Below, piece after piece: positions 7,273 to 50,059 of a stretch of 64,000 nt of DNA. The stretch covers positions 64,396 through 128,395 of the forward strand of contig CAVEMS010000002.1 of the NCBI GenBank assembly GCA_963616935.1, read 5' to 3'. The DNA comes from a bacterium (GTDB lineage: Bacteria; Bacillota_I; Bacilli_A; RFN20; CAG-826). The notes beneath the pieces are model-generated. The model saw only the letters and a list, made by a program, of their open reading frames with translations, was not told the DNA's origin and made no database searches. Both the position numbers and the translations under genes were made by a program. Position 1 is the first letter of the stretch, and each line of letters opens with the position of its first letter.

Positions 7273-9597
7273 ATGAGCAAAAAAGAGCCTTTCTTCAATT
7301 ACGACTGGTCATTCGTCGACGGTTTCGAGGAGGCCTATGCGATTAATGGCTTGCCGAAAGATACGAAAAAAGTCGATCTTCCGCATTACGCAAGATTAAT
7401 GCCGAAGCACTATTTCTCAGAAACCGACTACCAAGGCCTATTCTCTTACGAAAAAACATTCGTTTTCGATAAAAATGCACATTCTAATGAAAAGGTTCTC
7501 TTAAGGATGGAGGGCGCGATGATCAAGTCGCGCGTCTATCTTAATGGCATCGATTTAGGCGAAAAGATAACGAGTTATTTCCCCACCGTCTTCGATTTAA
7601 GCGAAGCGATAAAGGATGGCGAAAACCGCCTTTTGATCGTCGTCGATTCCAGAGAAGATCCGAATATTCCGCCTTTCGGCTTCGTCGTCGATTACCTCAC
7701 CTTCGCCGGGATCTATCGCCCGTTGTCCTTGGAATATATGAACAAAGACTATATCGAAGATGTTTTCGTATCCGCCAAAGCCGATGGGAGAATACGAGTC
7801 AAAACCACCCTATCCAATCCCGCCGATAGGGTTTCGTATCGAGTGATGGACGGAGAGAAGACCATCGCCTCTTTCGATGGAAATGAAGCCAAAATCGAAG
7901 GCATCACCCCGTGGGACATCGATAATCCAAAGCTATATCGCCTTATTGCATATACCGAAAAAGACGAGAAGGAAACCTTTTTCGGCTTTCGCGACGCCGT
8001 GTGGAAGGAAGACGGATTCTATCTAAACGGCAAAAAGATCAAGCTCTTGGGACTAAATCGACATCAAAACTTCCCTTATATCGGAGCGAGTGGCACTTCC
8101 TCTTTGCAAAAGCTCGATGCGGATATCCTAAAAACCAAAGCCGGAATCAATCTTGTTAGGACCTCACACTACCCCCAAAGCGAGGATTTCTTAGCGCATT
8201 GCGACGAAATCGGGCTACTCGTAATCGACGAGGTGCCAGGGTGGCAACATATCGGCAAGGAAGAAACCTGGCGAAGGAATTTCGAATCGATGATCGAGAG
8301 GATGGTCCGAAAAGAGAGAAACCACCCTTGCCTAATCGCCTATGGAACGAGGATCGATGAAAGCGTCGACGACCATGAGTTATACGCAAAGGCGAGGGAA
8401 ATAGCAAAGAAAGAGGATCCGTATCGCCAGATTCTCGGGGTGAGGAACTTCAAAAATAGCGAATTGCTCGAAGATATATACGCTTATAACGACTTCTCGG
8501 GCGGGGATATATACCATGGCCTCGATAATCCTAAAACCGTGAAGGGAGCGAAGGGCCATCCATATCTCGTAAGCGAATTCGGCGGGCATATGTTCCCGAC
8601 TAAGTCCTTCGACCCAATCGAAAAGAGAAACGAGCACGTTTTGCGACACCTTCGCGTCCTTAACGACATGTATTCATACGACAAAATAGCCGGAGCCATC
8701 GGCTGGTGCGCTTTCGACTACAACACCCATAAGGAATTCGGAAGCGGCGATCACGTTTGCTACCACGGCGTCTTCGATATCAACAGAATGCCAAAAGATG
8801 CCTCTTACGCCTATTTGTCGCAAACCTCCAAAACGCCTTTCATCCACGTCGTCGGGAGCAATATAACGGGCGATAACGCCGAATCCCTTATGAAACCGGT
8901 CACCGTCTTATCCAATTGCGACCGTCTCTCCCTCTACTCCAATGGCGAATTCATCGCCGATTTCTATCCAGACAAAAAAGATTTCCCCTCCTTGCCGCAT
9001 GCGCCTTTCATAATCGACGATTGGATCGGCGCTTCCTTTCATGAAGAAGGCTTCGGAAAAAGGCTTTCAAAGCAATGCGTCAAGCTTCTTAATGCCATCG
9101 CTTCTAAGGGAGTCGCGCATGTCGGACTCAAAGAATATCTGACGTATCTTGGCATTTTCCTTTCGAAACGGCTTTCTCTCGCCGACGTCACCGATCTATA
9201 TTACAAATACGTGACGACTTGGGGGAAGGAACCGAAAAAGTATCTTTTAAAAGGTTATATAAACGGAAAAGAAATGATAACGAAAGGCTTCGGCGTGAAT
9301 AACGGCGTCAACATCAACGTTAACGCTTCTAGCGACGTTTTGCATAACGACGAAACCTACGATATGGCGATGATTTCCATCGAAATGACCGATGACTATG
9401 GCAATAGGCTCCCTTATATGGATGAGATCGTGTCGCTTGAAACGTCGGGTCCCATCGAAATAGTCGGGCCAAGTTCCTTCCCTCTTTCGGGCGGCGCCTC
9501 CTCCTTTTACGTAAGAAGCAAGAAAGAAAGCGGCGTCGGTAAGGTGTTAATCCATATCAGAGACGAAGAAAAAGAAATCGCCTTCGAAGTGAAGTAA
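7273..9597 (+). CDS. glycoside hydrolase family 2 enzyme (beta-galactosidase/beta-glucuronidase-like; specificity unknown)
   Basis: 774 aa with the GH2 TIM-barrel signature NLVRTSHYPQSEDFLAHCDEIGLLVIDE, RNHPCLIAYG, and an N-terminal sugar-binding/immunoglobulin-like region. It is divergent from the GH36 gene across only 45 bp. Confidence 0.7.
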   Translation: MSKKEPFFNYDWSFVDGFEEAYAINGLPKDTKKVDLPHYARLMPKHYFSETDYQGLFSYEKTFVFDKNAHSNEKVLLRMEGAMIKSRVYLNGIDLGEKITSYFPTVFDLSEAIKDGENRLLIVVDSREDPNIPPFGFVVDYLTFAGIYRPLSLEYMNKDYIEDVFVSAKADGRIRVKTTLSNPADRVSYRVMDGEKTIASFDGNEAKIEGITPWDIDNPKLYRLIAYTEKDEKETFFGFRDAVWKEDGFYLNGKKIKLLGLNRHQNFPYIGASGTSSLQKLDADILKTKAGINLVRTSHYPQSEDFLAHCDEIGLLVIDEVPGWQHIGKEETWRRNFESMIERMVRKERNHPCLIAYGTRIDESVDDHELYAKAREIAKKEDPYRQILGVRNFKNSELLEDIYAYNDFSGGDIYHGLDNPKTVKGAKGHPYLVSEFGGHMFPTKSFDPIEKRNEHVLRHLRVLNDMYSYDKIAGAIGWCAFDYNTHKEFGSGDHVCYHGVFDINRMPKDASYAYLSQTSKTPFIHVVGSNITGDNAESLMKPVTVLSNCDRLSLYSNGEFIADFYPDKKDFPSLPHAPFIIDDWIGASFHEEGFGKRLSKQCVKLLNAIASKGVAHVGLKEYLTYLGIFLSKRLSLADVTDLYYKYVTTWGKEPKKYLLKGYINGKEMITKGFGVNNGVNINVNASSDVLHNDETYDMAMISIEMTDDYGNRLPYMDEIVSLETSGPIEIVGPSSFPLSGGASSFYVRSKKESGVGKVLIHIRDEEKEIAFEVK

Positions 9598-10192: not shown

Positions 10193-10311
10193 ACAAACAA
10201 CAAAAAAGTGTGTTGAACAACCAAAAAACACAACAAAAAAGTGTGAAGAAACAGCAAAAAACATAACAAAAAAATGTAATCAACATTAAAAAACGCCGCA
10301 AAAAATGCAAT
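10191..10311. repeat. A-rich imperfect tandem repeat, about 3.5 copies of a 32-33-bp unit with phased A6 tracts and a recurring AAAAAAGTGTG motif
   Basis: Units GAACAACCAAAAAACACAACAAAAAAGTGTGAA, GAAACAGCAAAAAACATAACAAAAAAATGTAAT and CAACATTAAAAAACGCCGCAAAAAATGCAAT are visible, lying between the azoreductase stop and the ATPase gene. Confidence 0.6.
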
Positions 10312-36210: not shown

Positions 36211-38094
36211 TTATTTCTTCTTTTTGCCGCCGGCCCTTCTTTTCATTATGAAAGCGGAGTAGCTCCCGATTTTTAACGTCAAATGGAACGGACGTCCTTC
36301 GGGGGCGCCTTTTTCGGCGATGCGAACGCCTCCGCAATATTGGTTACGGCCACCATAGACGTCTTTGTCGCTATTAAATAGCTCCGTCCATTCGCCATCG
36401 TGATAGACTCCGATGTCATAGGATTCGTAATAATTCGGGGTCATGTTGAAGACGAATAGCAAATCGCTATCGCCGACGCATCTTTCGAAAGCGAAGACAC
36501 TATCGAGATTGTTATCGACCATCGTCCAGACAAACGCCTTCGGATCGTATTCCCTTTCGTGCATCGCCCTTTCGCTTCGGTAGATGAGGTTAAGATCCCT
36601 CACCATCCTCTTCATCGAATCGTGTTTTGGGAAGGCCAAGAGATTCCAAGGCAAAGACATATTCTCGTTCCACTCGTCGAAGGAGGCTATCTCGTTGCCC
36701 ATGAAATTGAGTTTCTTGCCAGGATGGCCGAACTGGTAGACGAATAGGTTACGCAACAACGCGAACTTCGTCTCATAATCGCCATGCATCTTGTTTATCA
36801 AGGTGCCTTTGCCATGCACCACCTCATCATGCGAGAGAGGGAGCAAGAAATTCTCGCTATAGAAATAGGCCATGGAGAAAGTGAGTTTGTTATGCTCCCA
36901 CTTCTTATATATCGGATCCTTGGAATAATAAGACAAGGTGTCATTCATCCAGCCAAGGTCCCATTTATAGTCGAATCCCAAGCCGCCATCCTTAGTATCC
37001 TTCGTCACTTTGTCGTAATCGGTGCTATCCTCGGCTATCATCATGACGCTAGGATGGAAGAGATGCATCTTGGCGTTAAGGCGCTTGACGAATTCGATGG
37101 CGCCGCCGTTTTCACCCTTGTCTTTATTGCCATCCCAATAGATGAGATTAGCGACCGCGTCAAGTCGGACGCCGTCGATATGGAAATAGGAAAGGAAGTA
37201 GTTCACGGCGCTCATTAGGAAGCTTCTGACCGGATCCTTGCCCAAGTCGAAATAGCAAGAGCCCCAAGGCGAGAAAGTATGGGCCGAATCGGCGTATTCG
37301 TATAATGGTGTCCCGTCGAATAGCCTCAAGGCGAAGGAATCGTTCGCGAAATGAATCGGAGCGAAATCCAAGATGACGCCGATATCCGCTTGATGGAGCC
37401 TATCGATTAAGCTCATTAGCTGATAGGGATTGCCATATCTCGAGTCCACGCTATAGAAGCCGGTGGCCTGGTATCCCCAAGAGCCGTCGAATGGGTATTG
37501 GGTTATCGGCATGATCTCCACATGCGTATAGCCCATCTCCTTTAAATAAGGTATAAGCTCATCCGCGACTTCTTCGTAGGAAGGGAAGCGGGAACCCTTC
37601 TTCCGCCAGGAGCCCAAATGCATCTCGTAGATGGAAAGGGGCTTATCGAAGGAACGGTCGCGCGCCTTCATATGGGCGTCGTCATGCCAAGCGAAGCCAT
37701 TGATGTCGAATAGCCGCGAGCATGTAAGAGGGCGAAGCTCGCTAAAGAAAGCGAAGGGATCGGCCTTGTCGACGTATTCGCCATTCGCGTTCTTGAAGTG
37801 GAATTTGTAGCATTCGTAATTGTGTAGCCCCGGTATGAACGTTTCGAAAACGCCGCATTCATCGACTTTTCTCATCTTGTCCGCTGAGACATCCCAGCCA
37901 TTCCAATCGCCAATCACAGAGACGTCGCTCGCCATTGGGGCATATAGCCTAAAGACGACGCCGCTCACTTTAGTGGGCTTGCCATATTTATCGCGGAGAT
38001 ATGGGCTATCCATTGTGACGAAATGGGCCCCGAAATAATCGAAAGCCTCAATCGATTGGCCCATTAGGTAGTCATATAGTAAGCCAAATGCCAT
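36211..38094 (-). CDS. glgB: 1,4-alpha-glucan branching enzyme (GH13)
   Basis: 627 aa with GH13 catalytic regions (VILDFAPIHF, GVRLDAVANLIY, MIAEDST, LSHDEVVHGKG). Confidence 0.9.
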   Translation of the reverse strand: MAFGLLYDYLMGQSIEAFDYFGAHFVTMDSPYLRDKYGKPTKVSGVVFRLYAPMASDVSVIGDWNGWDVSADKMRKVDECGVFETFIPGLHNYECYKFHFKNANGEYVDKADPFAFFSELRPLTCSRLFDINGFAWHDDAHMKARDRSFDKPLSIYEMHLGSWRKKGSRFPSYEEVADELIPYLKEMGYTHVEIMPITQYPFDGSWGYQATGFYSVDSRYGNPYQLMSLIDRLHQADIGVILDFAPIHFANDSFALRLFDGTPLYEYADSAHTFSPWGSCYFDLGKDPVRSFLMSAVNYFLSYFHIDGVRLDAVANLIYWDGNKDKGENGGAIEFVKRLNAKMHLFHPSVMMIAEDSTDYDKVTKDTKDGGLGFDYKWDLGWMNDTLSYYSKDPIYKKWEHNKLTFSMAYFYSENFLLPLSHDEVVHGKGTLINKMHGDYETKFALLRNLFVYQFGHPGKKLNFMGNEIASFDEWNENMSLPWNLLAFPKHDSMKRMVRDLNLIYRSERAMHEREYDPKAFVWTMVDNNLDSVFAFERCVGDSDLLFVFNMTPNYYESYDIGVYHDGEWTELFNSDKDVYGGRNQYCGGVRIAEKGAPEGRPFHLTLKIGSYSAFIMKRRAGGKKKK

Positions 38095-38161
38095 AAACTC
38101 TCCTTGAAACGCTGTTTAGATTATAAGACAACCAAAGCCTTCATGAAAGAAAGCATTGTTC

Positions 38162-38274
38162 ATCGTTGAAACTCTAAAATAATCGTTGAAACTATCTTTT
38201 TATCGTTCAAATACAAAAATAATCGTTGAAACTAACAATTCCATCATTGAAACTCTTTGCGTATCGTTGAAATT
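38162..38274. repeat. six direct, helically phased (20-bp period) iteron-like repeats with core ATCGTTGAAAC
   Basis: Copies start at 38162, 38182, 38202 (ATCGTTCAAAT), 38222, 38243 (ATCATTGAAAC) and 38264 (ATCGTTGAAAT), at spacings of 20, 20, 20, 21 and 21 bp. They lie in the divergent intergenic region between glgB and the AlbA_2 gene. Confidence 0.7.
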
Positions 38275-38309
38275 AATGAGAAAATGATAGTGGATAGGGA
38301 GGAAGAGCC

Positions 38310-39734
38310 ATGCAAAAGGAAGAATTAGTAGAATTGATCAAAAACATCAAAGCCGTGAAAAGCGAATCGAACGACATTGAATGCAAAAGTGCATCAAAAG
38401 GCTGTCCGGAAAGGCTTTACGGCACCCTTTCCTCTTTCTCGAACCAAAATGATGGAGGAACGATAGTCTTTGGCGTCGACGAAAGGAACGGCTTTCGCAC
38501 GTGCGGCGTTTATGACGCGAACGACCTCATCAAAAAGATGACCGCGCAAGCTAAGCAAATGGAGCCTCCGGTGAGGGCGTTATTCACCATCGCGGAAATC
38601 GATGGGAAAACCGTCGTATCAATGGAGATACCAAGTCTCGACTACCAGGAGAGGCCCTGCTTCTATAAAGGGCTTGGCAAGCATCAGGGATCGTATATCA
38701 GAATCGGCGACAGCGACGAAAGAATGACCGAATCGGAAATTTATTCATTCGAGGCGTATAAGAAAAGAATAAGAGACGATGCCAGAGCCATCGATGAGGC
38801 CGATCTGAAACTATTCGACGAAGACAAATACTCACGCTATCTCAAAGCCGCGAAACTAGAGAGGGAAAACCTTTCGAGAAACGTAAGCGATGAGGAAATC
38901 GCCGAGCTTATGGGCTTAAGAAAAGACGGGAAGCCGACGCTCGCGATGGCGATGATCTTTTCGAAATATCCGCAGGCGTACTTCCCTCAGTTCTCCATAA
39001 CCGCAGTCGTTGTCCCGGGGAAGGAAATCGGCGACGCTACCGATAACGGCAAAAGATTCTTGGACAACAAGCGAATCACCGGCCCGATCGACGAGATGCT
39101 CGAGGAGGCCATGGAGTTCGTCATCCGAAACATCAAAGTTAGCACCGTGATTGACCATAACGGCAGGCGAAGCGACCAATACGAATATCCGTTGCTCGCT
39201 ATACGTGAGGCAATACTCAATTCCCTGGTTCACCGCGATTACAGCCGTTATTCCGAAGGCAAGGCAAACCGCATCGAAATCTATGCAGACAGAATCGAAA
39301 TCTCAAATCCAGGGTCGCTATACGGCGGCATCCCCGTCGATAACCTCGGAAGCACGAGGCCAGAAACCAGGAACGTCATCTTAGCCAACGTCTTGGAAAC
39401 GCTCAAAGTGACGGAAAACCGCTACTCCGGCATTCCGACCATAAAGAAAGAATTGGCGAAAATGGGAATGCCATCCCCCACATTCATATCAAAGGGCGAC
39501 GAATTCAAAATCATAATCCGCAAAGAATTCCCTAAAGGCAGTTCTTCTCTGACCGAGAAGATTTCCTCTTTTTGCCACGAGCCGAAAAGCCGGGATGAAA
39601 TAGCTAGTTATATCGGGTTAAGCAAAAACCACGTGATGTCGAAGATAATCGCCCCGCTCGTCGAAAAAGGAGTGATTGGCCTAACCATCCCCGAAAAGCC
39701 GCACAGTTCCTTGCAACGCTATTATGCGAAATAG
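38310..39734 (+). CDS. AlbA_2 (Schlafen-like divergent AAA) + HATPase_c_4 domain protein, putative nucleic-acid-binding regulator
   Basis: 474 aa. The N-terminal block (GKHQGSYIRIGDSDERMTESEI region) fits the AlbA_2/Schlafen core, and the C-terminus (REAILNSLVHRDYS ... IEISNPGSL) is the HATPase_c_4 region typical of so-called RecG-like transcription regulators. GGGAGGAAG RBS. Confidence 0.55.
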   Translation: MQKEELVELIKNIKAVKSESNDIECKSASKGCPERLYGTLSSFSNQNDGGTIVFGVDERNGFRTCGVYDANDLIKKMTAQAKQMEPPVRALFTIAEIDGKTVVSMEIPSLDYQERPCFYKGLGKHQGSYIRIGDSDERMTESEIYSFEAYKKRIRDDARAIDEADLKLFDEDKYSRYLKAAKLERENLSRNVSDEEIAELMGLRKDGKPTLAMAMIFSKYPQAYFPQFSITAVVVPGKEIGDATDNGKRFLDNKRITGPIDEMLEEAMEFVIRNIKVSTVIDHNGRRSDQYEYPLLAIREAILNSLVHRDYSRYSEGKANRIEIYADRIEISNPGSLYGGIPVDNLGSTRPETRNVILANVLETLKVTENRYSGIPTIKKELAKMGMPSPTFISKGDEFKIIIRKEFPKGSSSLTEKISSFCHEPKSRDEIASYIGLSKNHVMSKIIAPLVEKGVIGLTIPEKPHSSLQRYYAK

Positions 39735-39810
39735 GCGATGCGTGAATATGTCTCTTTGATGAGGCGCCCTAAAGCGTTAAAATCTTGACGATTAGCAAGG
39801 AGAATCATCT

Positions 39811-41013: not shown

Positions 41014-42008
41014 TGAAGCTCTCTAACGAGATAAAGCAATACGCGAAAGCGAGGAAAAAAGAATACTCCGCTTTCTATAAGGCAGTAAAGAAATACGACC
41101 GCATCTGCATTTTCAGGCACATCAAACCGGATTTCGACGCCATGGGCTCGCAAATGGGCCTATACACCTTCCTAAAGGAGAACTTCCCAAATAAGGAAAT
41201 CCATTACGTCGGGGATAACCACGTCACTTTCACCCCTAGGATCTTTCCGGAGACCGAAAGGCTTAACGACTCTTGGTTCGATACGCCATTCTTGGCTATC
41301 GTCGTCGACGTCGGAGACGATGAGAGAATCGCCGATCCGCGTTATAAGAGAGCGGCCTACGTAGCCAAAATAGACCATCACCCATCTAAGAGTGAGATCT
41401 CCCCTGCCCCGATCGTCGATTTAAATAGCGCAAGCGCGGCCGAACTCGTTTGTTCGGTTTTGCTAAACTGGAAGGGAACCTCCCTTTCGAAAGAAGCGGC
41501 CAAATACTTCTATATCGGCATCGTCGGCGACAGCGGACGCTTCCTCTATAGCAGCGTCTCTTCCCATACCTTTGCGATAGCCGAAGCCTTAATCGCCACC
41601 GGCATATCCATCAATTCGATATACCTATCGATGTATGAGAAGAAATTAGACGATCTGAAAGTCACGGCATACGTTCTCAATCATTTCGAGGTCTCTCCGC
41701 ATGGGGTGGCCTACTATTGCTTGGATGAGAACGTCCAAAAAGAGCTTTCCATCACCTCCGAAAGAGGGAAGGAAAACGTCAATCTCTTCTCGAATATCGA
41801 AGGCATCAACGCTTGGTGCTCGATAACCGAAGACCCTAATCCCAAGGATTGGTGCTGGAGGATAAGCATCCGTTCCAAAAAAGCCGATATCAGCGGCATC
41901 GCCAATAAATGGGGAGGAGGCGGCCATAAACAGGCTTCAGGCGCCAAGATAAAGGATCTATCGGAGCTCCCGGCATTTATCAAAGATCTCGACGATTTAT
42001 TCTGCTAA
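41013..42008 (+). CDS. nrnA: DHH/DHHA1 phosphoesterase, bifunctional oligoribonuclease / pAp phosphatase NrnA-like
   Basis: 331 aa with DHH motif KIDHHPS and DHHA1 motif GGGGH. Its start overlaps the ackA stop (TAATG). Confidence 0.8.
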   Translation: MKLSNEIKQYAKARKKEYSAFYKAVKKYDRICIFRHIKPDFDAMGSQMGLYTFLKENFPNKEIHYVGDNHVTFTPRIFPETERLNDSWFDTPFLAIVVDVGDDERIADPRYKRAAYVAKIDHHPSKSEISPAPIVDLNSASAAELVCSVLLNWKGTSLSKEAAKYFYIGIVGDSGRFLYSSVSSHTFAIAEALIATGISINSIYLSMYEKKLDDLKVTAYVLNHFEVSPHGVAYYCLDENVQKELSITSERGKENVNLFSNIEGINAWCSITEDPNPKDWCWRISIRSKKADISGIANKWGGGGHKQASGAKIKDLSELPAFIKDLDDLFC

Positions 42009-42029
42009 TCGTAAATCGATAGCAATCAA

Positions 42030-42091
42030 GCAATCTCATTGGCAATCGGATGGATTAATCCAGTAACCGCCGATGGAGATTGCTTTTTTCA
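42030..42091 (+). terminator. intrinsic terminator after ackA-nrnA
   Basis: GCAATCTC ... GAGATTGC followed by TTTTTTC (42085-42090); the stem extends imperfectly (CCGCCGATGGAGATTGC). Confidence 0.5.
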
Positions 42092-42989
42092 TGGCGCGCT
42101 GATGCATTTATATCGATAATTAGATGCGTTTGAATCCGGTGGCGATACAAACATCGGCAATCAAAAACGACCATTCATACGAGCCGTTTATGATGCTTAT
42201 GCGTTGTACAGTGTTTCTTTATTTCAGGTTGCCTTTATTCTTGAAGACGGTATGTAGCTCAATGAGTTCAAGAAGTTCTTCACGTTCAACGCCTTCAAAT
42301 GCAATTCGAGATATGTAAGAATCATCTGCTTTTCATTGCGATGTGGCATATTTGAAGACAATTCAAGATTCGTACCCCCATGGCTTCGCTAATCAAAATG
42401 TTTTTTGCATCATTTCTTTCAACGAAAATTAATCTTTCGGAAAATCAAATAATCTTTCGGAAGATTAATAAAAGCGACAAATAACACAATGAATTTCGTC
42501 TTCGTCATTTTCGACATCTTATATTCTGAAACATACCCATATATTTGGATAAATTGCACGGGTCGCCATTCTCGAACAGATTGAAGTTAGCTTAGCTTTG
42601 TTTGTGGTTTTTCTCGCAAAGAATGAAGGATTAGAATAGGCGAACCACACGCACCGCACCTTTTTCGATTGATGATTTTTTTATGTAAGATCACAATGCG
42701 AAGTTTTTTGTTTTCTTGATGCCACAGTCGAGACGCATCACAAAAAGCTTTCAAACAATGAGATGATGAATAATAAAAACATACTAATATTATTTTTAAT
42801 ATAATTATTACTTTTACATTTAATAATGTTTAATTAATTTATAATGCATAATAACGAACTTATTTATGCAAATGCTTACTTATATATTTCATTCTTTTTT
42901 GGTGAACCATAACAAAATTGTTAATCTATTTATGTTGTAATTATATTATTTAGAATATATTATATTAAAGAAAAAGAGGTTATATTTAT

Positions 42990-44324
42990 ATGCGAATAGT
43001 CCGGACAATCGAGAAATCGTTAATCAAATCGCTCGAGGAAAGCAACAATATATTGATTGAAGGCCTGCCTTTCATTGACAAAAAATTTTTGATTGAATCA
43101 CTCCTTTCAGAAGGTAAATTCGGATGTTATAAATGCGACTTAAACAATTATTCGCATATCGATAAACTGACTTCCTATTTAAGCGAAAACAGCCAAAGAA
43201 AAGGCGATAAAAATTCGAAGAAAAACGTCTTAATTCTGCACATCGAGAAAAACATCGGTTTATTGAAAACTTTACTAAATCAAAATAATGCTGATTTTCG
43301 CTACATTTTTGTTAGCGATGTAATACTTGATGGTTTCCAAAACTCCTCTAATTTAGACGTATTCATGATCAAACCCCTTAACTTTTTAGAATTTCTTTAC
43401 TCATGCGGCCTAAAGAAAGACGATTTGGAAAAATACAAGAATCGGGCGTTTGAAAGTATCAACGAAGAGAATGAGTTGACTTCAAAACTATATTCATTAT
43501 TGGATGTCTATTCACTTATCGGCGGCATTCCTAAGTGCGTGGACGTCTATTTATCTTCCGGAAACCTAAACAAAGCTCTGAAAGCGAGAGACGAAGCCTA
43601 CGCCGAATTCAACGAATCGTTCCTTTCGCTATGCGCCGCTTCTTTGATGTCATCCGACGCCAAAGATATAAACGCGATCCGAAACGCCAAAAAAGCCTTC
43701 GAATCGATTCCTCCATATCTCTCTAGCGATTCATACGATTATAAGTTCTCTTTCATATCTCCTTCGTCAAGGAAGGATTCATATATCTCATCTTTCAATT
43801 GGATAAGAAATAACGGATACGTTTGTTTATCCACTCGTGCGAACCCTTTTGTTCCAGCCACGAATGCCGAAGCAAACTCCTTTAAGGCCTATCTCCCTGA
43901 TATCGGCCTAGAAATGTCCGCTTTGAAGGTTAATGACATCAATCCTCATAACGGTCGTCTGATCGATCTTTTGATTGCCGATTCGCTATTCAAAAATGGT
44001 GCATCGCTAGAGTACATATTCGATTCAAAAACTCATGAGAAAGTCGATTGCGTCGCCTTGCGCGATGGGCATTATGAGATATATAAGACGTCTGGCGACA
44101 AGAAATGCGCCTCGCTATATTCGAAAACGGCCTCCGTTCTAAACGCTTCCAATGTCTATAACGTTATGTATGACACAAAGGGAAAGAATCAAAAAGAGCC
44201 ATTTAAGAACGTCGATGTCCTCGACGTCATGTTATCCATATGCGAATCCGAAAATAATGCGCATCAAAAAGAAAAGGAAGATATCCAAGCGATAGAAATC
44301 GATCCAGATTCCTTTTTGTCCTAA
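42990..44324 (+). CDS. degenerate COG1373/DUF4143-like protein (paralog 3) with eroded Walker A/B motifs, predicted to be ATPase-inactive
   Basis: Same length (444 aa) and C-terminal DUF4143-like block (EYIFDSKTHEKVDCVALRDGHYEIYKTSG) as paralogs 1 and 2. The Walker A position reads GLPFIDKKF and the Walker B position LILHIEKN. The local GC is about 37%, against about 47% for the window. AAGAGG RBS. Confidence 0.5.
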   Translation: MRIVRTIEKSLIKSLEESNNILIEGLPFIDKKFLIESLLSEGKFGCYKCDLNNYSHIDKLTSYLSENSQRKGDKNSKKNVLILHIEKNIGLLKTLLNQNNADFRYIFVSDVILDGFQNSSNLDVFMIKPLNFLEFLYSCGLKKDDLEKYKNRAFESINEENELTSKLYSLLDVYSLIGGIPKCVDVYLSSGNLNKALKARDEAYAEFNESFLSLCAASLMSSDAKDINAIRNAKKAFESIPPYLSSDSYDYKFSFISPSSRKDSYISSFNWIRNNGYVCLSTRANPFVPATNAEANSFKAYLPDIGLEMSALKVNDINPHNGRLIDLLIADSLFKNGASLEYIFDSKTHEKVDCVALRDGHYEIYKTSGDKKCASLYSKTASVLNASNVYNVMYDTKGKNQKEPFKNVDVLDVMLSICESENNAHQKEKEDIQAIEIDPDSFLS

Positions 44325-46280
44325 CTATTCCTCTTCGCTATATATAAGTCCGAACTTATGTAAATAACAGATGACGACGGTTCCCCAGCCATGGCAAAGG
44401 CTTCCGGCGTTTTCGAAGGCTCTCCAACCATCCATCGTCTCCATGAAACAAGTCGCCCCCTCTTTCTTTTGGGCGTCCATGATTTCATTTATATCGCTAA
44501 GGATATATTCCCTCGCGGATGGATTATCCGCCTTAAGAATGGCATCGTATAAAAACCTTCTCATGCTTAAGCTCGTCGGCACGAGGCCATATTTCACTGG
44601 ATCCATTATCTTCTTCGATATATCGAGTTCCAGGCTTTTGGGAGCGATGCCGCTAAGGATGGCCAAGGAATTACCTAAGACATTGCACGATGGATTCAAA
44701 TCGCTCATATGATATAAACCTTTATCCCAATCGAAGAAATGATCATGAGATTTAATGCGTATATCATTAATTAAACAGGCGTTATCGGATGATATTCCTA
44801 CCTTATTAGATAGATAATCATAAGCTTCTAACGCAATGACGAATAAGGAATTGATGACGATGTCGCTCTCTTTTTTTCTTTTTTCCATCAATCCATCCGC
44901 GAGTCCGTCCATCCATTCGTAGAAATTCCATTTGCCTTCGCCTTCGAAGGTCATCGCCAAACCGTTTTCCATATTGTCTTTGAAAGCGGATACTATCTTT
45001 TCTATCCTTGGAAGCGCCTCATAAAGGAAGGATTTATCGCCTGAAGCGTCGTAATAGCTCTTAACGGCCAAGATATAGAAAAGAGAGAAGCTAGGTATCG
45101 TAAGCGAGACATTGCTAGGAGCGCATATAGGAAGGAGTCCATCTTCTCTATCGTCCACGGCGAATAGCCTCAGAGAACTTCTGATCTGCTCAAGGTTCTT
45201 AAAAGCGAGAAAGCCGGCATCAATTTGATTAAGACTATCCAACGCGTATAGGCATTGCTCACGCCATGGGCAATCCTCGTAATGCTCATGATAGCAGCAT
45301 TCGAGGGTATAAACGGCCATGTCGTATATCTCCTTAACTGAATCATCGACAAACGCCCATTCCCTCTTATCGAACGGATAGACGCACGGATATAAGGAAA
45401 TCGACGGTTCGATATCGAAATCATCGTCTCCTATCACCTCAATATAACGGCATCCAAGCCTAAGAAACCCTTCGAAGAATCTGTTTCTTCCTTTTTTTAG
45501 TTTGACGTCGATTGAGAAGTTCCTGTTTTCGATCAAATACACCAATTCATTATCATTTAAGTGTTCAGCGTAGGTTATCTTGATCTTTCTTTCTTTCTCG
45601 GATTCGATATCGAGCGCCAAATATCCGACCGTTTCCTTCCCTAAGTCGTAGCGGTATCTTCCTTTACCGATATGGATAGGCTTAGGAGATAATGGCGAAA
45701 GGAGCTCGCATTTCTTATTTCTCCTTAGCTCAGGCGATGCGTCGTTCCTATCGACTATGACCGCATTAACATACTTTAAATCATTCTCATCTTTCGTTAG
45801 ATCGATGCTTAGTCTGTATCCCAGTTGCGGCGTTATTCTTTCCTTAAGTCCCGATAGATATCTATTCGATTCGGCTACCAAGGAGTCCTCACTAGACACA
45901 TATAAGATCTCATCGCCTTTCGAGATAACGAATATGATCGACGCCTTCTGGGCGAAGTAACTGCTAAAGCCATCGCTGCCTAAGTGATAAGCGTAGATTT
46001 TGAAGGTGTTGGTGCCACGCTTCGCCTTAAGAGACACCGAATCAACGATTGGATGCTTAGGATACGACGGGCTTTGCGAGAAGGAGGACAGCTCATCATT
46101 CAAAAAGAACATGTAGTTCGTGTCGGCGGATATATCTAATGTGACATCGGAGTCGCAATCGAGCACGAAAGAACCTTTTATGACGATATATTGATCGTCG
46201 AATGATTCCTTGGACCATATCCATTTCGCATTAGACAGTCTGTCGTTCATCGATTTGTTCTCTATAGCGTAGTTATCCAT
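44325..46280 (-). CDS. six-hairpin glycoside hydrolase, alpha-L-rhamnosidase-like (GH78-related)
   Basis: 651 aa with N-terminal AKWIWS, an EDCPWREQ motif resembling the GH78 DCPQRDER block, and C-terminal SLCHGWGT shared with the 59836-61455 gene. Confidence 0.45.
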   Translation of the reverse strand: MDNYAIENKSMNDRLSNAKWIWSKESFDDQYIVIKGSFVLDCDSDVTLDISADTNYMFFLNDELSSFSQSPSYPKHPIVDSVSLKAKRGTNTFKIYAYHLGSDGFSSYFAQKASIIFVISKGDEILYVSSEDSLVAESNRYLSGLKERITPQLGYRLSIDLTKDENDLKYVNAVIVDRNDASPELRRNKKCELLSPLSPKPIHIGKGRYRYDLGKETVGYLALDIESEKERKIKITYAEHLNDNELVYLIENRNFSIDVKLKKGRNRFFEGFLRLGCRYIEVIGDDDFDIEPSISLYPCVYPFDKREWAFVDDSVKEIYDMAVYTLECCYHEHYEDCPWREQCLYALDSLNQIDAGFLAFKNLEQIRSSLRLFAVDDREDGLLPICAPSNVSLTIPSFSLFYILAVKSYYDASGDKSFLYEALPRIEKIVSAFKDNMENGLAMTFEGEGKWNFYEWMDGLADGLMEKRKKESDIVINSLFVIALEAYDYLSNKVGISSDNACLINDIRIKSHDHFFDWDKGLYHMSDLNPSCNVLGNSLAILSGIAPKSLELDISKKIMDPVKYGLVPTSLSMRRFLYDAILKADNPSAREYILSDINEIMDAQKKEGATCFMETMDGWRAFENAGSLCHGWGTVVICYLHKFGLIYSEEE

Positions 46281-46782
46281 ATAACGTTCTTTCCTGTTCG
46301 TCCATCAATATGCACCATCTAGAGAGAATGGTCAAAAGAATGGCGAAGATAAACAAAAATGCAATGAGGATAGGCAATATTTTCTATGCGGTTCATAGCA
46401 TCTATTTGATTTAGCTTGCAGACGATAGTTTTTGCAAAAAGTTTTCGAGTTATTTAAGACAACGCTGCTCCCAAACCGTTTCTTTTCAGCTCGCGCCGAT
46501 CGCCTAGAAAAGTCAAAAAACTACCGCGCGGGCCAAAAACGCAATTTGGCTTGGCGCGAAAACCTGGCGAAAGCGAAATTTGCTAAGCCGAATTGAGCCC
46601 GCCTTTCGAAAGCGGAAATTACTTTTGCAATTTGCGAAAAAAATGAATCTTAATTTTCGAAAATAAAAGCCACAAAAAGAGTTTTTTGTTTCCTTCTATG
46701 GTTTTTGTTTCGGTCTTATTTTAATAGACTTAATAAACCTTTTTCACAAAAAGCTCTAATACGATTATTAATGTTTTTCCTT

Positions 46783-47720
46783 TTATTGCATATCTTCGAA
46801 TTCTTCAAAGATTTCTTCTATATATTGGTTTCTTTTAAGCAAACAATTCGTAATTTTGTCGATCGCTTTGTCATCCGTCATTCGTTGCAATCTCTTTTCT
46901 GCCAATTCCCTTTTGCCTTCTGGGGCGTTTTCCGGATTCAATGGGTCAAATCTCGTACCGATATTTTTAAGATAGCTCCTTAAATCATCCTTATTTCTTA
47001 TATTATTTTTTTCATAAAATTTAGGACCCCAACCGAATAAAAGGTTTCTGTGTATATCAATGGATAAAAATGGCCTTCATGACAGCCTTCTTTACTAAAA
47101 ACCTCAGAAATTCCGACAGAACCAATCATTGGCAGTCCAAATTTATAAATAAGCGGAATCATAAATGCAAAATAATTTCCCGCTTCTTTAAGGCCCATCA
47201 ATTCAAATGGGAGCTCTCTTAAGATTTTATGTTCATCCGTCGGGTTATCGTAAAAATCGTCGGGAACGTTTTCTTGAATCCTTTTGTTATTCATATATTC
47301 CGCAATGTTCATATACTGCTCAAACAAATACATTTCGTTCTCATTGAATGACTCATTAATATACCTACCTACCTACGGTTTTTAGATATCCGGACCCGTA
47401 TTCAACGAAATCGCCATCGCCACGAACAATTTCTTTTAAATCCGTCATTCTCATTCCGTTTTTAAATAAGAACTTTTCGATTCCCTCGCTTGTTGCTGTT
47501 ATGAAAAAACAACATGAGTCAATTTATTAATTTCATCATAAGACTTTGTTTGCACTTCCTTTAATGCATCGGATTCGCTCATCCCATGATAAAGCAACAA
47601 TGCGTAATAGTGCGCTAATTTACCTGGACAGAGTTTTAGTTCCCCAGGGACTTCGTAAGCCTCTTCAGAAGATATGAGATCTTCCATTTCTTCATCATTT
47701 TCATCAAAAATTTCTAGCAT
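46783..47720 (-). pseudogene. hypothetical gene split into four frame segments by shifts at T6, (TAGG)n and A7 tracts
   Basis: Segment A is 47499-47720 (73 aa). Segment B is about 47378-47523 in the +1 frame (…SEGIEKFLFKNGMRMTDLKEIVRGDGDFVEYGSGYLKTVGR). Segment C is 46998-47333 (111 aa). Segment D is about 46783-46997 (…NNIRNKDDLRSYLKNIGTRFDPLNPENAPEGKRELAEKRL…DMQ*). A joins B with +1 nt in the T6/A6 tract at 47504-47509. B joins C on loss of one TAGG unit at about 47362-47377. C joins D with +1 nt in the T7/A7 tract at 47006-47012. The region is about 33% GC. Confidence 0.55.
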
Positions 47721-47986
47721 TTTTTCTTTTTTCGCTCATAGGCATAAAAATCACCTCTATACATTAATTCGTAATTAAATTTTAGATTTTATATTCCGTT
47801 TTGGAAACTATTAATAGAAAAATGTAAATTTTATACTTAACTTCTCGCTTTAACCACTTTCGGAATTTCTCTTTTAAAGAACGTTGTAGGCGATGATAAA
47901 TCATCGGCCTTTAAGCGCGAAAAAAAGGTCACGAAACAAATGCAATGTAGAATCCGGCAGCAAATGACAGCCATCAAAAAACGGCT

Positions 47987-48916
47987 TTATCGGCTTTTGC
48001 CTTTACCCAAAAGAGGCGCGAACCAAAACAAAGATCCGAGATTTTCTCCCCTTCTTTCCTTCGAATAACGATCCATCATTGCTTTGAATAGCATCATGCA
48101 AGCGGCAGCAAACATATAGAACAAATCTATGTCATCCGTGTTTTGAATGACGTTCATATGGGCGAACGATAGGTAATCCCCGCCACCGACCTCAACCATA
48201 TCCCATATGACGGATGCTGAGATTTCGCGATAATCGTCAAGTTCTTTGTCGGACAATCCCTTCTTATCGTCCTTATAGATATTGAATATGCATCTCTCGG
48301 TATTGGTCCTAACGAAATAACCGGTCTTATTGCCTTCGATTATGAGTTCGAAATCGACACCCATAGAGATCTTGGCTATCTTCTCCTTCTTCTCGTTTAA
48401 TAGCCATAACGCAAGATTCTTTCCCTTAGAAAAACGAAGGTAATAGAACGGATCCTCGTCTTTGATGATGCGAAAGCAATATCCTCCCTCATCCCTCATC
48501 TTGTAATAAACGTTCTTATCAGGGCCGAACGCAGGATGTTTGAAGATCTGGCCACTTAAACACATAGAGCCATCAACCGCGTTAGTCAGGCTAAACATCC
48601 GTTCGGCTTCCTTGTCACTAAGAAGTTTGAAGTCGTTTTTAGTATTGGTAGCCTTTTTATTCCAATACTCGGCACTACCTTTGATTATCTTCTCGATCTC
48701 TAGGAAATTCGTGGCCGCATATCTGAAATTCTTAATGGCCTCGATAGCGTCGTCGAAATCGGCGATATGGTTAAGCCTATCGAACGCCGCCTTATAGAAA
48801 GAATCACGATCGATTTCGTCCGCTTTAGCGATATAGCCAAGCCCTTCGAAGATGGTCTTGACGTTAGTTAGAAGCACCTTCGTCGATATCGGCATGACAG
48901 TCTTTCTCTTTCCCAT
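47987..48916 (-). CDS. hypothetical protein
   Basis: 309-aa ORF with coding-like composition and no recognisable motifs. Confidence 0.5.
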   Translation of the reverse strand: MGKRKTVMPISTKVLLTNVKTIFEGLGYIAKADEIDRDSFYKAAFDRLNHIADFDDAIEAIKNFRYAATNFLEIEKIIKGSAEYWNKKATNTKNDFKLLSDKEAERMFSLTNAVDGSMCLSGQIFKHPAFGPDKNVYYKMRDEGGYCFRIIKDEDPFYYLRFSKGKNLALWLLNEKKEKIAKISMGVDFELIIEGNKTGYFVRTNTERCIFNIYKDDKKGLSDKELDDYREISASVIWDMVEVGGGDYLSFAHMNVIQNTDDIDLFYMFAAACMMLFKAMMDRYSKERRGENLGSLFWFAPLLGKGKSR

Positions 48917-49149
48917 GATTACTACATTATACTTTTGCTAGGTGCACGAACATACGATTAAAAAACGCATTCCGTTCAACGACGTGACTAAAAGCCAAAT
49001 TTCGAAAAGAAAGACGCCTACGTTTCGTTATGTCGAAAAGAGCGGCTAGTAGATCCTTTTTTCGTTCTGCCCTCGTTATCCCCATTGTAGTTAGCAAAAT
49101 CAAAAAAGCGGCCCAAGGGACCGCTTCAAGAGATAAAAGATATAAGGAC

Positions 49150-49908
49150 TTATTTGCCAGCCGGAATCGGAGAGATCTTATTGTCCGCTTCGATGCCGCT
49201 AAGCTTATCCATATCGAAGGAAGGGATGTCGTTGCTATGTCTAAAGGAATTGCGGAAATCCGCTTTAAGCTCTTCGATCTTTAGCATCGCATCGCCATAA
49301 CGGCCGTATTTCGCGGATTCTATCGCATGGCGAGGAACGCCGAAGAGAATAAATAGCACGATCGATAAGGCAGCGGCTGCCATACCAAACCAATAGAGCA
49401 TGCCGAAGACGCCACCGCTAAGGACATCGGCGAGTTTCACCTCATATCCGTGGTTCCATATGCCAACCCCTAGGCAAGCGGCCCCGCCAATCAAAAGGAG
49501 CAAGAAGAGAATCGTGATCAAAACCGGCAAATGGCGCTTCTTCTTGGCTTTCAAGGCTTTGCAATATAGCAAATAGTTGTCATAGGTCATACGATTATAG
49601 ATATGCTCGGCCTGACGCCACTTCTGGAAGTCGTTTGCGAAGCGATTACGGCCATAGGTCATACGGACGTAGTTATCGACCGGCTCGTCGTTATGATGGA
49701 GGGCGAGCCCTAAGAAAGCCTCATCGGCCTCTTGCGGATAATAGAAATGAGCCATATCCGTCGTGCCCTCGATCTTGCCGTCCATCGAGCGTTGGAAATT
49801 GATTTCCTGCATCGTTATCGGGCGATAGCCGAAAGTCTGGAAAACGCGATGGAATTTGTTTTCCGATCCCTTTGGGATGTTTATCGTCTTGTAGTCGTAC
49901 TGATCCAT
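49150..49908 (-). CDS. hypothetical membrane protein (two TM helices), last gene of the hypB operon
   Basis: Two hydrophobic helices (LPVLITILFLLLLIGGAA ... GVFGMLYWFGMAAAALSIVLFILFGV). The preferred start is MDQYDYK at 49908 with an AAGGAGAGAGG RBS; the ORF track starts at 50028. Confidence 0.5.
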   Translation of the reverse strand: MDQYDYKTINIPKGSENKFHRVFQTFGYRPITMQEINFQRSMDGKIEGTTDMAHFYYPQEADEAFLGLALHHNDEPVDNYVRMTYGRNRFANDFQKWRQAEHIYNRMTYDNYLLYCKALKAKKKRHLPVLITILFLLLLIGGAACLGVGIWNHGYEVKLADVLSGGVFGMLYWFGMAAAALSIVLFILFGVPRHAIESAKYGRYGDAMLKIEELKADFRNSFRHSNDIPSFDMDKLSGIEADNKISPIPAGK

Positions 49909-50059
49909 ACCTCTCTCCTTATGTGGTTGTAATAGATTAACACAGATATTGGTGTTTTTGGGTCTCGAAGTGGGATGGTCGCCCCATCCGTATAGCGGCA
50001 TATCGAAGTCCGGGTCTAATATTGCCATATCGATGCCTCAATTGCCTCTAGCGCATGAG

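Follow-up and report, generated by a model that had tools for sequence, protein, structure and literature searches.

What function have the six evenly spaced direct repeats that lie between glgB and a gene for an AlbA_2/HATPase_c_4 protein, and which of the two genes do they serve? The question is raised by a 64-kb stretch of contig CAVEMS010000002.1 (positions 64,396 to 128,395; hereafter the window), in which the two genes diverge from an intergenic region of 215 bp (38095-38309), 52% of it occupied by the repeats. These form an array of six plus-strand copies of a ATCGTTGAAAC-type 11-mer that extends over 112 bp (38162-38273). An earlier note on this DNA had proposed a cooperative binding array that controls the glgB operon, the adjacent gene or both. 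The analyses reported here favour, with a probability of about 0.68, a reading in which the array is the cognate operator of the downstream gene (38310-39734) and mediates its cooperative autorepression within a mobile module of ~1.57 kb. The copies are as follows.

38162..38172, plus strand, repeat copy 1: ATCGTTGAAAC, exact
38182..38192, plus strand, repeat copy 2: ATCGTTGAAAC, exact
38202..38212, plus strand, repeat copy 3: ATCGTTCAAAT, 2 mismatches
38222..38232, plus strand, repeat copy 4: ATCGTTGAAAC, exact
38243..38253, plus strand, repeat copy 5: ATCATTGAAAC, 1 mismatch, ending 3 bp short of the putative -35
38263..38273, plus strand, repeat copy 6: ATCGTTGAAAT, 1 mismatch, in the 17 bp that separate the putative -35 from the putative -10

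Successive cores start 20, 20, 20, 21 and 20 bp apart, and Tandem Repeats Finder (TRF) detected periods of 20 (score 74) and 40 (score 122) in the array. When up to one mismatch was allowed, five copies were found in the 64 kb, all inside the 112-bp array, while simple arithmetic predicts about one by chance on both strands. The core positions, the TRF result and the mismatch scan thus establish that the six-repeat array with 20-21-bp phasing described in the earlier note is real, with two amendments: the sixth core starts at 38263 and not at 38264, and three of the 11-mers are exact rather than four. The array has a GC content of 28% versus 47% for the window. The same six-copy array, with one single-nucleotide polymorphism (SNP) in a spacer, was found again in two further assemblies of this species, and this spacer SNP is all that a comparison of cores and spacers yields among the three assemblies. 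A search of the window and of nearby loci for further copies hinting at a regulon returned only scattered 9-mers at chance level, and no match to an RNA element was found in Rfam.

In silico comparison across genomes indicates that the array accompanies the gene rather than the place. The three closest homologues (L002, L003 and L004; 64-65% identity) are found in three unrelated gene contexts, namely YcxB-like/mgtE, DUF4874/MFS transporter and among acetyltransferases, and directly upstream of each there are 3-4 direct repeats of period 20-21 with a related core (TCGTTCAAAC in L002 and L004, GTGTTAAAAC in L003). The C at position 7 of copy 3 in the window is the consensus base of the arrays of these nearest homologues (L002, L004). 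A larger family set was made of 80 loci from species-representative genomes, with relatives at 47-64% identity, and the 300 nt upstream of each gene were taken. Most loci belong to metagenome-assembled genomes (MAGs) of gut or rumen Firmicutes and some are assigned to Bacteroidota, Treponema, Desulfovibrio, Aeromonadales or Selenomonadales. In these upstream regions, copies of the commonest 9-mer most often follow each other at 20 bp (47 cases) or 21 bp (48 cases), and smaller peaks at 10-13, 31 and 41-42 correspond to multiples of one helical turn.

Chains of copies at 19-22-bp steps were then counted in the upstream regions, in 104 other intergenic regions of the same loci and in 80 shuffles. 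Chains of at least three copies occur in 33 of the 80 upstream regions versus 2 of the 104 control regions and none of the 80 shuffles (Fisher p = 3e-12), and one of the two control matches belongs to the family arrays, being a second array copy downstream of the gene in L029. Chains of at least two copies were found in 71/80 upstream regions, 29/104 control regions and 9/80 shuffles (Fisher p = 2e-17). The mean period within chains is 20.5 bp and arrays are composed of 3-9 direct repeats, helical phasing being a feature of the family as a whole. Distant superfamily members located within operons (L210, L212) are without such arrays. The operator-like site thus stays with the regulator gene when the context changes, as seen both in these counts (33/80 versus 2/104) and in interspecies homology blocks that contain array and gene (see below), and the array is very probably the cognate cis-element of the 38310-39734 gene.

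The proximal copies appear to be interleaved with the promoter of the gene. Where a family locus has a near-consensus promoter (TTGACA-17-TATAAT), the -35 directly follows the last upstream copy, and ~12 loci have one more copy that starts 0-9 bp past the start of the -35 and either overlaps it or lies within the spacer. The clearest examples are L015 and L020, in which a copy is found between TTGACA and TATAAT. In the window, alignment with the homologues places a putative promoter composed of TTGCGT, a 17-bp spacer that holds copy 6, and TGaGAAAAT:

38257..38262, plus strand, putative -35 TTGCGT, aligned to TTGCAA of L004 and to TTG of L002 and L003
38277..38285, plus strand, putative extended -10 TGaGAAAAT, aligned to TGaTAAAAT of L004 and to TAAAAT/TATAAT-like hexamers of L002, L003 and L164
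38297..38302, plus strand, ribosome-binding site (RBS) GGGAGG, 7 nt before the ATG

At the homologous position, L004 displays TTGCAA-17-TGaTAAAAT and shares with the window the order of -35, copy and TG-extended -10. A scan of the window intergenic region for consensus promoters came back empty, the putative promoter of this gene being too weak to be reported. The location of an operator in the spacer of strong promoters argues for repression rather than activation.

The two genes flanking the array, whose identification in the earlier note was borne out by Pfam, are the following.

38310..39734, plus strand, gene for a 474-aa protein with AlbA_2, HATPase_c_4 and Fic-like_C (winged helix-turn-helix, wHTH) domains by Pfam, the presumed array binder
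36211-38094, minus strand, glgB by Pfam

The 474-aa protein matches SLFN_AlbA_2 with 55.4 bits and HATPase_c_4 with 82.4 bits, both above the gathering score, and its C-terminal winged helix corresponds to Fic-like_C. An AlphaFold (AF2) model, with a mean pLDDT of 73, has in this C-terminal wHTH three helices (414-421, 428-435 and 439-452) followed by a beta wing, the helix at residues 439-452 being the predicted recognition helix. The fold search retrieved 3LMM and 2KYY, the N-domains of SLFN11 and SLFN14, and ATP-binding domains of the histidine-kinase type (GHKL); the only solved sequence relatives are two structural-genomics entries, 3LMM (DIP2311) and 2KYY. In PADLOC the protein matched only in part, against pAgo-associated models containing Schlafen, no NCBIfam model covers it, and no paralogue was found in the 64-kb window. 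On account of the Pfam domains, the AF2 model and the fold matches, the product is placed as an uncharacterised protein of predicted Schlafen-like/GHKL/wHTH architecture. The subfamily accounts for more than 6,400 database matches and about 600 species-level genomes, and orthologues are present in cultured strains such as Acetoanaerobium noterae DSL2, Butyrivibrio sp. MB2005, Floccifex porci LKV-178-WT-2G and Pseudoflavonifractor phocaeensis.

If this protein binds the array, the repeat core should be expected to change with the DNA-reading part of the protein. The core does vary by lineage (TCGTTGAAAC, GTGTGCAAAC, GTTGGCAAAC, ATCGTTAATTC and AACTTAAAAT are among the forms found), as illustrated by the following loci.

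Window: core ATCGTTGAAAC
L009: core GTGTGCAAACTCG
L015 and L020: core AGTTGGCAAAC
L011, L014 and L016: core ATCGTTAATTC
L022: core AAGTTGACATTT
L061: core AAACTTAAAAT
L060: core ATTTAAAAT

Family loci that have the same core also have the same predicted recognition-helix sequence: SR[FY]YTMSHIV pairs with core GTTGGCAAAC, SKNYVMSQ[IL]V with core ATCGTTAATTC, and S[KR]NHV[MI]S[KQ]II with core TCGTT[G/C]AAAC. Within this last group, the window protein has K445 and a G at core position 7, where L002 and L004 have Q and a C. Partial Mantel tests were performed on 33 loci, the helix segment being defined as window residues 436-448. Motif distance correlates with the helix segment when the rest of the protein is controlled for (r = 0.24, p = 2e-4) and with the whole wHTH (r = 0.155, p = 0.009), and neither the other domains (p = 0.16-0.61) nor the rest of the protein (p = 0.24) contributes anything beyond the wHTH. 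This points to the wHTH, rather than the AlbA_2 domain, as the part that would read the core.

The same data bear on the idea that the repeats are the sites of a trans-acting regulator encoded elsewhere, for instance a response regulator of the LytTR type. The 20-21-bp direct-repeat geometry would fit, and cores ATCGTTGAA and ATCGTTAAT resemble the LytTR consensus, [TA][AC][CA]GTTN[AG][TG], and the plantaricin-type TACGTTAAT box, the window core matching the LytTR consensus at 7 of 9 positions. Cores of other lineages (GTGTGCAAAC, GTTGGCAAAC, AACTTAAAAT, TTTGAGTT) are however unlike the consensus and track the adjacent helix, arrays contain up to 9 copies instead of a pair with one copy lying within the promoter spacer, and the same architecture occurs in MAGs of Bacteroidota, Spirochaetota and Desulfobacterota. 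No LytTR-like open reading frame (ORF) was detected in the 64-kb window, in what is a weak test made with an AgrA probe. A regulator of this kind is therefore very improbable, and a LytTR operator was rejected as a candidate for an array which has six copies, including one in the putative spacer, and whose relatives have cores off the consensus.

Some subgroups of arrays depart from this layout. In that with core ATCGTTAATTC (L011 3865-3925; L013, L014, L016 and L008 at homologous positions), the array ends distally in two inverted copies, GAATTAACGAT, located 13 bp apart and adjoining the first direct copy so that a perfect palindrome is formed, and interspecies nucleotide homology starts at or near this palindrome. 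In loci with cores ATTTAAAAT or AACTAAAA (L060, L050, L065, L049, L059, L063 and L058), an extra copy, such as gagATTTAAAATGaat, covers the RBS or the start codon in the last 15 nt up to and including the ATG. This copy is not found in the window, and from its position a further operator may lie beyond the transcription start.

How such an array might work can be proposed from these elements. It is probable that the wHTH of the 474-aa protein binds the array and represses the promoter of its own gene. One protomer would occupy each 11-bp core via the C-terminal recognition helix (residues about 439-452). Because the cores are direct repeats two helical turns apart, protomers would be arranged head-to-tail on one face of the DNA and would bind cooperatively, and because copy 5 abuts the putative -35 and copy 6 takes up the putative spacer to the -10, RNA polymerase would be excluded once the array is filled. 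Such exclusion would result in a switch-like negative autoregulation in which copy 6 is the presumed repressing operator and the distal copies would provide cooperative nucleation together with a reservoir platform. Repression could be relieved by ATP binding to the GHKL domain, or by binding of a ligand or nucleic acid to the Schlafen domain, either of which would presumably alter oligomerisation. Binding, stoichiometry, the sign of regulation and the relief signal are all inferred from sequence.

Several points weigh against this reading. Chains of three or more copies were detected in only 33 of the 80 family loci and 9 of the 80 have no phased pair at all, so that the phased array is common in the family without being universal, or else more degenerate than the detector can see. 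The window hexamers (TTGCGT and GAAAAT) are weak and were placed by alignment to homologues only, and an upstream array that ends at the -35 could also activate transcription. Since partial Mantel tests are anticonservative for phylogenetically related sequences and the effect size is modest, the core-helix covariation is supportive but not decisive. A literature search found neither binding nor expression data for family members. Finally, when metagenome and viral contigs were scanned in reverse for three TCGTTSAAA copies at 20-21 bp, at least 120 metagenome loci and 2 viral loci were retrieved, and a family homologue occurred near only 4 of the 122 listed. Among these listed loci, 76/122 have identical spacers and 67/122 lie in long ORFs; nearly all of them are generic 20-21-nt perfect tandem or coding repeats that hold the 9-mer by chance. 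The scan is thus swamped by unrelated repeats, and core and phasing have no diagnostic value by themselves. Its matches do include a single family-type array, which precedes a truncated gene of the family (L164, L183).

The reverse scan also revealed unrelated non-coding arrays with TCGTTSAAA at a 20-21-bp period, in marine loci (L087, L093, L123) and in loci of AT-rich genomes (L140, L167, L186, L201-L203). One type is made of up to about 15 copies of aagccaattgaaTCGTTGAAAa and the other of TCGTTCAAAtagaatcaaaa units, which in L201 are located upstream of a 1065-aa ORF. No family gene was found near these arrays.

The array and the gene also appear to travel together. All-against-all megablast of the family loci revealed, between different species, blocks of 82-92% nucleotide identity that begin 69-139 bp upstream of the ATG, at the distal end of the array, and end within ~20 bp of the stop codon. 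The flanks are unrelated in all pairs except L023/L028, in which homology passes the stop codon and recurs downstream. The loci concerned are L011 / L013 / L014, L032 / L034, L058 / L064 and L047 / L050, the last being, if binning is right, a Firmicute/Alistipes pair. The boundaries of these blocks agree with those seen when the window is compared with a sister lineage that has no such gene (see below). Array, promoter and gene would accordingly constitute a single-gene module of ~1.57 kb that has moved horizontally, as judged from these alignments. In seven loci, array and gene are flanked on both sides by the same stretch of 15-130 nt, a direct duplication with exactly two occurrences in the locus, at the following positions.

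L012: 3685/5541
L028: 3894/5507
L075: 3775/5494
L078: 3806/6101
L084: 3681/5567
L029: 6/1633, the duplicated stretch being the array itself
L215: 7910/9495, the duplicated stretch being the array itself

The duplications of L028, L078 and possibly L075 look like host terminator hairpins, and flanking duplications of this type may be the footprint of an insertion mechanism.

Such observations raise the question of whether the array might serve, beside or in place of an operator role, as the terminus or recognition site of a mobile element with a single gene, whose Schlafen-like nuclease-fold/ATPase/wHTH protein would bind it to drive excision, integration or copying of the element. The idea would account for the joint movement of just these two parts between genomes. 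It is in line with the interspecies homology, which begins at the distal end of the array and ceases within ~20 bp of the stop codon, with the occupied-versus-empty comparison, which likewise places the right boundary at the stop codon, with the seven duplicated loci (15-130 nt), with the presence of homologues in several phyla and with the two inverted copies that mark the distal array end in one subgroup. Yet no transposase, integrase, HUH or recombinase domain was found in the 474-aa protein by Pfam, PADLOC, NCBIfam or fold search, the array is present at one end only and there are no terminal inverted repeats. The duplications vary widely, are restricted to ~7/78 loci and do not occur in the window; sharp boundaries could also arise through selection on a functional unit after ordinary recombination; and the sister state resembles a deletion rather than a clean empty site. 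A mobile-element end is thus rather unlikely. Transposon-end arrays in the style of Tn7 TnsB or Mu MuA were considered and rejected, the array being one-ended, with duplications of 15-130 nt in a minority of loci and no transposase domain. A related and likewise unlikely possibility is that array and gene form a minimal single-gene selfish or defence module in which the array would be both the self-repression switch and the cis-site for excision, copying or integration of the ~1.55-kb unit; it would fit the terminator duplications, the cross-phylum spread and the near base-exact boundaries. Autorepression through a cognate operator array remains the preferred reading.

Comparison with the sister lineage (L213/L214), whose GlgB is 96% identical, addresses the role of glgB. 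In this lineage ackA and glgB are divergent and 188 bp apart, with no AlbA_2 gene in between. Homology with the window (~88% at the nucleotide level) extends through glgB to 38173, the end of copy 1, and resumes at 39735, the first base past the stop codon of the 474-aa gene. What separates these two points, together with the likely glgB promoter element, is listed here.

38174..39734, plus strand, segment absent from L213/L214: copies 2-6, putative promoter and gene, which together with copy 1 make up the ~1.57-kb module
38120..38125, minus strand, likely glgB -10 TATAAT, outside the array

Copy 1 is the sole full copy kept by the sister lineage. The remnant (L213 5813-6000, equivalent to window 38095-38173 plus 39735-39810) contains ATCGTTGAAAC followed 19 bp downstream by ATCGTTAAGGC, that is 1.5 copies. 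Since a perfect copy with an in-phase partial copy is unlikely to arise by chance, the simplest history is that of an ancestral array and gene that were deleted in the sister, and the remnant is best described as a putative solo-array scar.

That the array could be a cooperative operator of the divergent glgB-glgP operon is suggested by its position 36-150 bp upstream of the likely glgB -10 and by a weak in-phase 'copy 0', CTCCTTGAAAC (38100-38110), which overlaps the glgB Shine-Dalgarno (SD) sequence 62 bp before copy 1. This 'copy 0' is probably fortuitous because 6 of its 11 bases are merely the complement of the SD AAGGAG. The region 38095-38160, which holds the likely glgB -10 and the SD, is conserved in the sister without the gene, and since this lineage keeps the glgB promoter and leader without copies 2-6, glgB does not depend on the array. 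Besides, glgB does not adjoin the gene at the family loci inspected for context. Control of glgB is therefore quite improbable and, from this comparison, glgB is most simply seen as a bystander, although a bound filament could incidentally affect its transcription. Of the cooperative array proposed in the earlier note, the autoregulation of the AlbA_2/HATPase_c_4 gene thus receives support from the linkage across contexts, the promoter interleaving and the core-helix covariation, while the control of the glgB operon finds no support, either in the sister lineage or in the inspected contexts of other family members.

Another relative, L215 (GlgB 78% identical), has a distant AlbA_2/HATPase_c_4 gene of 484 aa at 8046-9497, inserted between glgB and glgP. 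Its product shows a best local match of 34%, and ~24% over most of the length, and the gene is preceded by four TATATTGCGCT repeats with 10-11-bp spacing. Two superfamily members have thus inserted into the glycogen locus independently of each other.

The neighbourhood is also informative with respect to replication and partition. By Pfam, the genes on the minus side encode GlgB, GlgP, a dUTPase and a PucR-type HTH protein, and those on the plus side the 474-aa protein followed by acetate kinase (ackA) and a DHH phosphoesterase. AT-rich direct repeats (28% GC) with a two-turn period of 20-21 bp beside a gene for a DNA-binding protein would be compatible with the iterons of a replication origin or with a centromere-like partition site. 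Against this, no Rep_3, RepA_N, ParA, ParM or ParR domain was found nearby by Pfam, the window has neither a DnaA-box cluster nor a GC-skew switch, the locus lies on the chromosome in synteny with relatives, and the module is a single gene. Such an element is extremely improbable, and the earlier note, which had considered an origin less likely, was right on this point: no Rep, Par or DnaA-box signature was found and the GC-skew check shows no switch. Iterons of the Rep_3/RepA type were discarded as Pfam and the fold search give only Schlafen-like, GHKL and wHTH domains, and so was a centromere of type II/III partition systems (parC/tubC-like), the neighbours being glgB, ackA and a DHH phosphoesterase with no pair of NTPase and adaptor. 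Elsewhere, a distant homologue (24% identity) on the Lactobacillus iners plasmid pC0094A1 (L209 1190-1470) occurs after ~90-nt tandem repeats that hold AATCGTGAGTT 11-mers at 11-bp spacing, and a ParM/StbA gene lies ~640 bp downstream of it. These repeats may represent the centromere or the iterons of the plasmid, or else a further self-operator.

Two further features of the window lie away from the array. The region 42000-50000 has a low GC content (0.39-0.41 versus a mean of 0.47) and may be an island; a gene for a DUF4143/AAA_14-type ATPase (42990-44324) matches the PADLOC candidate defence family PDC-S01. At 10197-10305, TRF detected a 33-bp A-rich tandem repeat in 3.3 copies, ACAACAAAAAAGTGTGAAGAAAAACCAAAAAAC.

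AlbA_2/HATPase_c_4 proteins ('Schlafen-like', COG2865) are very common in bacteria, plasmids and phages, and their annotations contradict each other, database names including 'RecG-like helicase', 'ATP-binding protein' and 'RNA-binding domain-containing protein'. The operator array borne by this subfamily would be the first concrete and testable DNA target for such proteins, and the subfamily arrays offer a predicted link between recognition helix and core sequence. The array promoter would be a ready reporter, as derepression would report the signal sensed by the Schlafen and ATPase domains. The linkage of array and gene also corrects a natural misreading, namely that such arrays regulate whichever metabolic operon adjoins them, and points to a compact unit of gene plus operator that crosses phyla in gut communities.

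With regard to known systems, the 474-aa protein belongs by domain content and fold to the COG2865 family (Pfam AlbA_2 + HATPase_c_4), for which the literature, full-text searches included, yielded no function, DNA target, operator or regulatory element. LytTR operators (AgrA, ComE, PlnC/D) are composed of 9-bp direct repeats with 12-bp spacers and a CGTT-containing consensus, and occur as pairs that activate weak promoters from upstream. The present arrays resemble them in their ~21-bp period, in the CGTT that some lineages have in the core and in occurring in Firmicutes, but count 3-9 copies instead of pairs, with one in the spacer of promoters that are often consensus, and their cores diversify with an adjacent protein that is not of the LytTR type.

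Closer parallels are found in plasmid systems. In the RepA/incC system of plasmid P1, studied by Chattoraj and colleagues, the repA promoter is nested in 19-bp direct repeats. As in the window, the direct repeats are in helical phase at ~20 bp and the gene of the (in the window, presumed) binder lies directly downstream. The P1 promoter is located within the proximal repeats so that occupancy autorepresses, and repeats and protein co-evolve, much as is proposed for the present arrays. Unlike P1, the window has no initiator fold (Rep_3 / WH1-WH2), origin features or replicon, and the predicted binder is a 474-aa Schlafen-like/GHKL/wHTH protein of a chromosomal single-gene module. In pSK41 the type II partition site parC is a tandem array of 20-bp repeats, and its binder, ParR, is also the autoregulator of parMR. 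The site resembles the array in its 20-bp direct repeats upstream of an operon and, as far as the proposed mechanism goes, in the repression of that operon and in a cooperative, filament-like coating of one DNA face, and differs from it in that here there is no ParM/ParA NTPase, small RHH adaptor or plasmid context and the binder is a predicted winged helix. By analogy with these two systems, the array would work like iteron-mediated autorepression as known from P1 RepA/incC and pSK41 ParR/parC.

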